This document shows positions 10,115 through 11,750 of a stretch of DNA of 16,161 nt, in pieces. Location of the stretch: the IMG/VR virus record IMGVR_UViG_2737471845_000010, positions 1 to 16,161 of that record, one strand, 5' to 3'. Position 1 is the stretch's first letter; each line of letters starts with the position of its first letter. Both the position numbers and the translations under genes were made by a program. The DNA is from a virus (lineage: Duplodnaviria > Heunggongvirae > Uroviricota > Caudoviricetes). The notes beneath the pieces are model-generated. The model was not told the DNA's origin and did not search any database. It saw nothing but the letters and a program-made list of their open reading frames with translations.

Positions 10115-10176
10115 GTAACAATAGTTACATAGCAATGTCAACCATAGCAACATCACTTGGTAGTAACATTGGTTAC
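10115..10176. promoter_or_regulatory. OR-like operator region: two GTAAC-N4-GTTAC palindromes between the divergent cro-like and repressor genes
   Basis: GTAACaataGTTAC at 10115..10128 and GTAACattgGTTAC at 10163..10176, the latter directly abutting the repressor ATG. A TTGACA hexamer is present on the minus strand in this interval. Confidence 0.6.
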
Positions 10177-10851
10177 ATGAAAAACACTATCAGCGAACGT
10201 ATTCGGAATCGTCGAAAAGACGTTGGATTAACCCAACAGCAGGTTGCGAAAGCAATCGGCATATCTCGTGTATCCGTAACAAAATGGGAAAATGGCTCTT
10301 CAAAACCTGACGGTGAGAATTTACATCTACTGTCAAAATTGCTTTCCAAATCTCCTGAATGGATTCTTTATGGAAAGGACGGTCACGATAAAACCGATGA
10401 TCTGCGTCTGAATCAGTACCTTTACATTAGTGACAACATCGCCCGGTTGCCCGTTTTAACGTGGGAACAGGCTGGTTATTGGGATATGAGTTGCCCAGTA
10501 ACCGAGATTCCTGGTATTAAGAATTGGGTTGATGTCATGACAAAAACCGCTGAAAACTCTTTTTTATTGCATGTTGAGGGAGATGCGATGACAAACTCTA
10601 ACGGCCTCCCAACCATCCCCGACGGATCTACCGTGCTGATCACACCATGCTCAAGTAACATTAGAGAACTGGCGGGGAAAATAATCTTAATCCAATTGGA
10701 AGGAACGCCAAACGTAACACTAAAAAAAGTTGCGATTGACGGACCAAACATCTATCTGTTGTCACTGAATCCGCTTTACAAACCCATCGAACTGAATGGC
10801 GGTTACACCATTAAAGGTAAAGTTTCACAAATACATCAATACTTAGATTGA
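10177..10851 (+). CDS. CI-like prophage repressor (N-terminal XRE-type HTH plus C-terminal S24 LexA-like domain)
   Basis: HTH segment LTQQQVAKAIGISRVSVTKWENG. C-terminal domain aligns by eye with lambda CI (…EGDAMT…; …VTLKKV…). Start chosen at ATG 10177; the tracked ORF begins at TTG 10078 and would overlap the operators and the cro RBS. Confidence 0.85.
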   Translation: MKNTISERIRNRRKDVGLTQQQVAKAIGISRVSVTKWENGSSKPDGENLHLLSKLLSKSPEWILYGKDGHDKTDDLRLNQYLYISDNIARLPVLTWEQAGYWDMSCPVTEIPGIKNWVDVMTKTAENSFLLHVEGDAMTNSNGLPTIPDGSTVLITPCSSNIRELAGKIILIQLEGTPNVTLKKVAIDGPNIYLLSLNPLYKPIELNGGYTIKGKVSQIHQYLD

Positions 10852-10855
10852 GTCA

Positions 10856-10883
10856 GAACCCGCATTCATTGCGGGTTTTTTAT
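10856..10883 (+). terminator. rho-independent terminator after the repressor gene
   Basis: AACCCGCA-ttcatt-GCGGGTT stem-loop followed by TTTTTT. Confidence 0.7.
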
Positions 10884-10912
10884 GCCCTCAAACGTACCTT
10901 TTGCAACATCGT

Positions 10913-10939
10913 ATTGACTCATGTGGTAACTCTTGTTAC
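10913..10939 (+). promoter_or_regulatory. OL/PL-like element: TTGACT hexamer followed by the third operator palindrome GGTAACtcttGTTACC
   Basis: Same GTAAC-N4-GTTAC half-sites as the two OR sites (10925..10938), located at the head of the plus-strand early-left operon. The -10 element is not clear. Confidence 0.5.
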
Positions 10940-11259
10940 CTTAACAACATACCAACCCACTCCGCCCCACAGAATGCAGGGCAATACTTCGAGTTACCAG
11001 GCAGTGGTCAGGGGGTAAGTAGCCAGCCCGAGGCGTAAGAACATGACGGCAGGGTTCAACTTTAACTATGCAGCAGGTTTTTGTTCCGCTACCCCGGCGT
11101 TAAGGGGAAACAGAGGATTTCTCAGTGGGCGAAGTCAAACATCAGAATGGAAGGCATCCTGGGCTCTGCAAAGAAGCAGCAATGGCGCTTTATATTGACA
11201 TCAGCGCCATTGCCGGACAGCTAAGAATTATCAGGGCGGTAACTAAGCGGTATGCGCCT

Positions 11260-11460
11260 TTACTTCAGAAAGTCTCTTGTGAGTGCACCGAAGATATTGT
11301 CAACGATTTCGTCATCGAACTGCGAAGACTCATCTTCAGTTACAAGGTGACCACAATTTTTGCAGATGGCTCCCGCGAAACTGTCAGAGCCCTGCGGCTT
11401 AAAGGATGTGTCAAAGACTTCGCCACCACATTCTGGGCAAGAAAACTTGATTGTATTCAT
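11260..11460 (-). CDS. small zinc-ribbon protein (66 aa), antisense to the early-left operon
   Basis: Two CxxC pairs (CPECGG … CKNCGH) with an acidic C-terminus; GAGAGGAAA RBS about 6 nt upstream of ATG. The overlapping plus-strand ORF 11125..11481 is the alternative reading and contains several rare AGA/AGG codons. Confidence 0.45.
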   Translation of the reverse strand: MNTIKFSCPECGGEVFDTSFKPQGSDSFAGAICKNCGHLVTEDESSQFDDEIVDNIFGALTRDFLK

Positions 11461-11552
11461 AACCAATTTCCTCTCGAGTAACAGACCCCTCAGAGGATAC
11501 CACCTCGCCTGACGTGGTTAAAAGCAGGCAACGCTAACCACAAGGAGCCGAC

Positions 11553-11750
11553 ATGCAGAAACGAGAACCCGTCATCATCGCGCCAGACTATACCGATGAT
11601 GAACTTTATGAGTGGATGCGCCAGAAAATTAATGCAGCGCAGGATTTGAAATGGGCCAATGAAGCTAGGGCTAAGCAGGCTGAAAATCTGTCCGCTCTGG
11701 AGCAGGATATCACCAGGCTGGAAAAAGCAGCGGCATTAAGCATTGCCTGA
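11553..11750 (+). CDS. small hypothetical early-left protein (65 aa)
   Basis: RBS AAGGAG 6 nt upstream of ATG; coiled-coil-like C-terminus. Confidence 0.65.
   Translation: MQKREPVIIAPDYTDDELYEWMRQKINAAQDLKWANEARAKQAENLSALEQDITRLEKAAALSIA

Follow-up and report, generated by a model that had tools for sequence, protein, structure and literature searches.

The analysed window is a stretch of 16,161 nucleotides whose source is a Qin/Rac-like E. coli prophage. The features of the interval between the repressor gene and the ydfC homologue are listed in Table 1. In a preliminary description, about 670 bp had been counted between the repressor terminator and the plus-strand gene at 11553, and the interval had been read as the head of the early-left operon, with a minus-strand 66-aa ORF (paired CxxC motifs and a good ribosome-binding site) overlapping a plus-strand 118-aa ORF with a GTG start. 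All of the described elements were found, both ORFs were confirmed, and the placement at the head of the operon was supported, as was the suggestion of an immunity-region accessory gene. The interval as a whole is not a 670-bp untranslated leader; if the plus ORF is translated, approximately 175 nt are left untranslated. In Qin, the position of the two-strand cassette is taken by ydfA-ydfB. The division inhibitor gene dicB lies downstream of the cassette in the early-left operon.

Table 1. Features of the repressor-ydfC interval (positions in the window)
Feature	Position	Strand	Description and basis
Repressor gene	10135-10851		Domains HTH_3 and Peptidase_S24
Terminator of the cI-like repressor gene	10857..10884	+	Hairpin and T-run; arms 10857-10864 / 10870-10877 = AACCCGCA / TGCGGGTT; inverted repeat and sequence
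Early-left (PL-type) promoter	10914..10942	+	TTGACT-17 nt-TACCTT; predicted, read from the sequence
Module A, conserved structured leader	10950..11082	+	First 133 nt of the ~175-nt untranslated leader; covariation
Candidate leader ORF	11043..11198	+	Invariant ATG within module A, GAGG 9 nt 5'
Module B	11083..11110	+	GTTCCGCTA and small hairpin CCCC-GGCGTTAA-GGGG; alignment, exact-motif matches
Plus ORF	11125..11481 (or from 11182)	+	First ORF of the early-left operon; PHROG 21318
Terminator-like hairpin of the zinc transcript	11168..11213	-	GCAATGGCGCT-13 nt-AGCGCCATTGC, tail TGCTTCTTTGC; inverted repeat
Zinc-ribbon gene, 66 aa	11260..11460	-	ECs_2282 family; wholly inside the plus ORF, antisense
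Expression signals of the zinc gene	11461..11521	-	Predicted; block conserved across genera
ydfC homologue	11553..11750	+	Next gene of the early-left operon; phrog_1744; RefSeq annotation of near-identical loci

The predicted early-left promoter is overlapped in its spacer and -10 by the operator GTAACTCTTGTTAC (10926-10939), and exact matches to GTAAC-N4-GTTAC were present at 10115, 10163, and 10926 only. In relatives with other repressors, the homology starts approximately 7 nt past a -10-like hexamer. A promoter consensus scan listed neither this promoter nor that of the zinc gene.

On comparative grounds, the minus-strand ORF is a real gene. It starts with ATG, preceded at 7 nt by GAGGAA, and carries CPEC at residues 8-11 and CKNC at residues 33-36. 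Residues 4-59 were aligned with profile positions 1-56 of 60 of NF047912 (ECs_2282_CxxC; 57.3 bits, cut-off 37, E = 1e-15). Eight diverged lineages of the gene, from five enterobacterial species and metagenome contigs, were compared: the ATG, the ribosome-binding site, and the stop are all conserved, the lineages share a length of 66 aa, and C8, C11, C33, and C36 are invariant across all homologues. The dN/dS of the zinc frame is summarised as 0.06-0.27; it was 0.18-0.35 among genera and 0.06-0.13 among E. coli alleles. The wider family comprises 81 representatives of approximately 65 aa, and one of them (P0017), located in an ordinary same-strand gene row, resembles the zinc protein with E = 7.8e-9 against 1.8 billion proteins. 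The two CxxC pairs and the length of ~60-66 aa point to a putative zinc ribbon, and zinc binding is predicted. The AlphaFold model of the protein was poor (pLDDT 58.6, from 7 sequences only). A PDB profile search with the family returned generic zinc-ribbon and spurious lysozyme matches only, the scan of species-representative genomes for the gene gave two spurious zinc-ribbon matches, and PADLOC gave no meaningful defence-family match.

The predicted promoter of the zinc gene consists of a -35 element TTAACC (11521-11516), a 16-nt spacer with CCAC...GTGG, and a -10 element TATCCT (11499-11494). The gene also has a 5' hairpin, with the ribosome-binding site (GAGGAA, 11473-11468) within its 3' arm. 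This promoter-like block is kept in E. coli, Citrobacter, Enterobacter, and Klebsiella, and in phage mEp460 the same block (37 nt identical) stands before a different antisense 66-aa gene. In the terminator-like hairpin, the internal ATG of the plus ORF (11182) lies inside the 5' arm (plus strand), and the codons in the arms are invariant. Most of the other genera have a comparable hairpin with a T-rich tract after it (CATTTTTCC; read from the alignment). From these elements we infer that the block would act as a promoter and the hairpin as a terminator.

The plus ORF is very probably a real gene too. It has 118 aa if read from GTG 11125 (ribosome-binding site GAGGA, 11113-11117), or 99 aa from ATG 11182, and from the latter start it matches phrog_21318 over positions 1-99 of 99 (E = 1e-64, 215.8 bits). 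The family is made up of 43 clusters. Homology searches placed the two conceptual proteins in separate families, ECs_2282 (minus) and PHROG 21318 (plus). The ATG start and the ribosome-binding site are conserved in Klebsiella and Citrobacter, and one allele (L152) has ATG instead of GTG as the start of the 118-aa form. In the N-terminus, outside the overlap, the dN/dS of the plus frame was ~0.1-0.6, and that of the two other frames was ~1 or more in most comparisons. Three-base periodicity was detected in this part (permutation p = 0.016-0.02), and the only indel among 22 sequences is in frame. AlphaFold2 predicted a compact alpha/beta domain (pLDDT 88.0, pTM 0.70). No structural or sequence relatives hinting at a function were found for the plus protein, and when both ORFs were searched against Pfam/NCBIfam, there was no match besides the ECs_2282 family of the zinc ORF. 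The many rare Arg codons noted earlier in the plus ORF were confirmed, with AGA, AGG, CGA, or CGG used for nine of the ten Arg residues.

The zinc gene lineages contain 107 Leu/Ser codons (36 codon states), and none of these is TTA, CTA, or TCA, each of which would place a stop in the plus frame. In the phage background, the three codons make up ~25% of Leu/Ser codons (P ~3e-5 with the states treated as independent; the counted states are not fully independent events). For zinc Pro9, only CCA is used (Trp opposite), and for Ser7 and Ser25 only TCT (Arg opposite). Pro22 is CCG or CCT and Gln47 is CAG or CAA, with Arg and Leu, respectively, opposite in both cases. The synonymous states of the zinc gene favour conservation of the plus protein when compared with random draws (p <= 3e-4). 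With a transition bias of up to 8 and stop-creating codons excluded, no draw reached the observed plus-frame conservation, and p = 0.0002 was obtained in the transitions-only test. When close alleles of E. coli were compared, the dN/dS of the plus frame within the overlap was 0.9-2.0, and the dS of the zinc gene was not visibly below that of the neighbouring non-overlap segment; in this set, only the zinc frame is detectably constrained. Across the alignments, the zinc frame is under strong purifying selection; selection on the plus frame is weaker yet significant, in the overlap as well as beyond it. It had been stated that the coding strand was not decidable from sequence. The question is a real one, as annotations are split, but the statement was too pessimistic, since the comparative analysis finds selection on both frames.

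The two-strand cassette was intact in at least 10 diverged lineages (E. coli, Citrobacter, Klebsiella, Enterobacter, and metagenomes), and the arrangement is therefore not due to chance. The pair is retained down to ~40% protein identity, and the two ORFs are jointly intact in all lineages analysed. Without exception, the zinc gene runs antisense to an early operon, located past either the left promoter or cro; two species have the cassette in the rightward operon, behind cro. One locus (L149) is degraded: opposite its plus ORF no zinc-ribbon ORF was detected, and the C-terminal part of this plus ORF departs from its family. Most of the interval is present in about 830 of 5426 complete E. coli genomes. 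RefSeq/PGAP annotates the minus ORF only, with near-identical genes named in hundreds of E. coli genomes, and the records of phages Evi, vB_EcoS-813R8, and Stx2_14040 annotate the plus ORF only. This is an annotation blind spot, in which RefSeq takes one strand, phage records take the other, and each hides half of the locus.

Module A starts at the predicted transcription start. It is composed of a three-part hairpin (10959-11015) capped by a conserved 15-nt loop CAATAC-NNN-GAGTTA (10982-10996), an invariant stretch AAGTAGCCAGCCYGAGGC...GAACATGACGGC, and a second hairpin with the closing pairs 11049-11051 / 11069-11071. In the MAFFT alignment, pairing was found in 83.5% of cells, compared to <=45% in slid controls, with compensatory change at 15 pairs, and the observed values were reached in none of 500 shuffles. 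The covariation outcome was the same on a model-fitted alignment. With the covariance model, one copy per locus was detected in 89 loci (66-155 bits), and the module is common to Rac- and other Qin-like prophages despite their different repressors. Folding of the leader alone was uninformative (z-score 0.55), the structure being visible by covariation only. The wobble count for the strand of the leader hairpin (13 G-U cells vs 27 A-C cells) does not settle which strand folds. Module A had no relevant match in Rfam at gathering thresholds or E <= 10, and the Rfam families AgvB, AsxR, and DicF had no match to the interval. Pas sRNAs were also rejected; they sit in late phage regions.

Module B lies directly 5' of the ribosome-binding site of the first ORF, and it was also found before ydfA in K-12 Qin and before ydaG in K-12 Rac. 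The candidate leader ORF has 51 codons here, 4-24 codons in most relatives, and was read longer in one; its stop is located 12 nt past the internal ATG of the plus ORF. Literature searches (locus tag; ydaG/ydaF leader) yielded no description of this locus, and no description of the control of Rac- and Qin-type early-left transcripts was found. The leader, located where these transcripts begin (5' end), is proposed as a possible new RNA family.

The reading preferred here is that one DNA stretch probably codes two proteins, one per strand, in a mobile cassette behind a structured leader. The zinc gene alone could be functional instead, with the plus ORF as a shadow frame that is untranslated or translated only for ribosome cover; in one variant, translation keeps polarity off ydfC, dicB, and the exonuclease gene, and the amino-acid sequence is irrelevant. 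In favour of this reading, the E. coli alleles show the contrast in dN/dS between the two frames in the overlap and no visible decrease of zinc dS, and codon position 2 faces position 2, which is the usual register of shadow ORFs. The Ser (TCT) and Pro (CCG/CCT) codons of the zinc gene dictate the rare Arg codons opposite them in the plus ORF, and RefSeq annotates the zinc gene only. The plus-ORF family has been seen only together with the zinc gene, so it offers no independent proof of existence. A shadow frame was the initial reading, dropped on the conserved start and ribosome-binding site, the N-terminal dN/dS, the AlphaFold model, and the codon-state tests, and it is now considered rather unlikely. 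The N-terminus outside the overlap has coding periodicity, a dN/dS below 1, and a lone indel that is in frame, and the model of the plus protein is confident. The filtering of synonymous states persists with stop codons excluded and transition bias allowed, and ribosome transit alone would not give it. The reverse case, in which the plus ORF alone is a gene and the zinc-ribbon ORF is a chance antisense frame, agrees with the three phage records and with the better AlphaFold model of the plus ORF. It is hardly credible given the zinc frame, where dN/dS is lower at every distance and the four Cys residues, the 66-aa length, the ATG, the ribosome-binding site, and the stop are all fixed or conserved, and given zinc-protein relatives of ~65 aa in unrelated contexts, such as P0017.

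The preliminary description had pointed to the position at which lambdoid phages carry N with nut sites, and the interval could serve antitermination of the N/nut type known from lambda and P22, the plus ORF being the N analogue. The position fits, the plus ORF being the first ORF past the left promoter, and one relative (L123) carries, past its module A, a canonical boxA (CGCTCTTTAACA), a boxB-like hairpin, and a protein with an Arg-rich N-like motif. In the window itself, no boxA (CGCTCTTTA-like) was found in 10884-11552 with up to one mismatch, the only small hairpin has the 8-nt loop GGCGTTAA, and neither ORF has an N-family match. The plus ORF also has no Arg-rich N-terminal motif and is predicted to fold into a compact alpha/beta domain, and the cassette occurs behind cro in the rightward operon as well, all of which makes this explanation extremely improbable. 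Alternatively, the two genes may form a toxin-antitoxin-like pair resembling RalR/RalA of Rac, with the zinc protein as a Lar/RalR-like toxin or restriction-alleviation factor checked by the complementary early-left transcript, or the reverse. RalR, a 64-aa zinc-ribbon toxin, is controlled by antisense RNA within an operon of the same type, and the two transcripts here would be fully complementary. Distant members of the zinc family match Pfam Lar_restr_allev near full length but below threshold (17-21 bits vs a cut-off of 28.6), and the zinc protein of the window weakly matches a Lar-like PHROG (E = 0.0098). The same protein has no match to PF14354 at E <= 0.01, hhalign against RalR gave 42% probability over the zinc knuckles only, and no defence or toxin family was matched at a meaningful level. 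Such a pair is regarded as improbable.

In the preferred reading of two genes on opposite strands, the locus would be built in three layers. The early-left promoter would be controlled by the repressor, with an operator of the same form as the two operators at the divergent cro/repressor promoter region. The leader of ~175 nt would follow, with a conserved structured RNA over its first 133 nt, and then the mobile cassette, of which the operon strand would give the 99-118-aa PHROG 21318 protein and the opposite strand, wholly within the plus ORF, the 66-aa ECs_2282 zinc-ribbon protein from its own predicted expression signals. In the lysogen, the repressor would hold the early promoter off and the zinc gene would be transcribed from its own predicted promoter; the basis for its expression in this state is orientation and analogy only. 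The zinc transcript (~320 nt) would span the internal start ATG 11182 through the end of the plus ORF, and GTG 11125 lies outside its predicted end. Because it would cover the plus ORF from ATG 11182, this antisense transcript would damp leaky early-left expression, including that of the downstream dicB. Upon induction, early-left transcription would run head-on through the zinc promoter and pair with the zinc mRNA, and the output would switch from the zinc protein to the plus-strand protein.

Taken jointly, and drawing partly on analogy, zinc transcription in the lysogen, damping of early-left expression, and a switch upon induction are plausible, if slightly short of an even chance. For the zinc protein, a prophage accessory or superinfection-exclusion role is the best guess, albeit a doubtful one. 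A fuller version would be a self-contained two-state module with the zinc protein in the lysogen and the plus protein after induction, made mutually exclusive by head-on transcription and full RNA complementarity, and fed by a hitherto undescribed, structured cis-acting leader RNA by which early-left transcription or translation would be modified in Rac-/Qin-type prophages without N. This version is offered tentatively, and its holding in full is thought unlikely.

Embedded antisense pairs with selection in both frames are rare and debated in bacteria and phages, and the present pair is kept across several genera. Owing to its small size, a few mutations silent on one strand would suffice to test it. 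The position of the cassette ahead of dicB at the lysis-lysogeny switch suggests a simple antisense device for phase-specific expression.

Several known systems can be compared with this locus. NF047912 has the same CxxC pairs and length as the zinc ORF of the window; its description is without the constant antisense position in an early operon or the opposite-strand gene seen here. In the literature on the ECs_2282 family, no function or expression study was found, and no paper names the locus tag. PHROG 21318 matches the plus ORF end to end and has no function listed, and no record was found that its members enclose a conserved opposite-strand gene. The leader can be compared with HK022 putL, a cis-acting antiterminator RNA (PMC9378689); both are folded RNAs right after the early-left promoter with no N gene nearby. 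No sequence similarity between the leader and putL/putR was seen on reading, and the covariance model finds nothing in HK022. Unlike the HK022 put sites, module A is without a second copy after the rightward promoter (89 loci; none rightward in the window), and one relative of the locus carries the leader together with an N/nut system.

The related prophage Rac (K-12) has sieB and RalR/RalA, accessory genes or RNAs that, like the zinc gene, are located antisense inside the early-left operon; at one Enterobacter locus, the zinc gene lies immediately past a co-oriented sieB. As annotated in K-12, sieB and ydaF overlap by 4 nt only, in contrast to the full embedding here; RalA, for its part, is non-coding, and the zinc protein has no established homology to RalR/Lar. 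In E. coli O157:H7, ano, laoB, asa, pop, and others are antisense embedded overlapping genes (PMC5960689, PMC5810103, PMC6294744, PMC7103648). They share with the zinc gene the form of a short embedded antisense ORF with its own promoter, ribosome-binding site, and terminator, which are predicted here. The O157:H7 cases are known mainly from RNA-seq and ribosome profiling and are young, narrowly distributed ORFs within well-known genes (PMC5960689, PMC5810103, PMC6294744, PMC7103648), whereas the zinc ORF is the more conserved partner, belongs to a wide family, and lies in an overlap with selection detectable in both frames.

In Pseudomonas phage Fc02, olg1 is a small lysogen-expressed gene beside the repressor gene, and it overlaps, on the opposite strand, gene 10, an early lytic gene after the cro-like ner (Ramirez-Sanchez et al. 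2023, PMC9936078). RNA-seq brought this overlap to light, and in experimental tests both products excluded superinfecting phages (PMC9936078). Fc02 itself is Mu-like and not related to the present prophage, nor are its proteins, and the cassette described here is known by sequence comparison and has its embedded gene wholly inside the partner. The two loci have the same architecture and the same place in the genetic switch.

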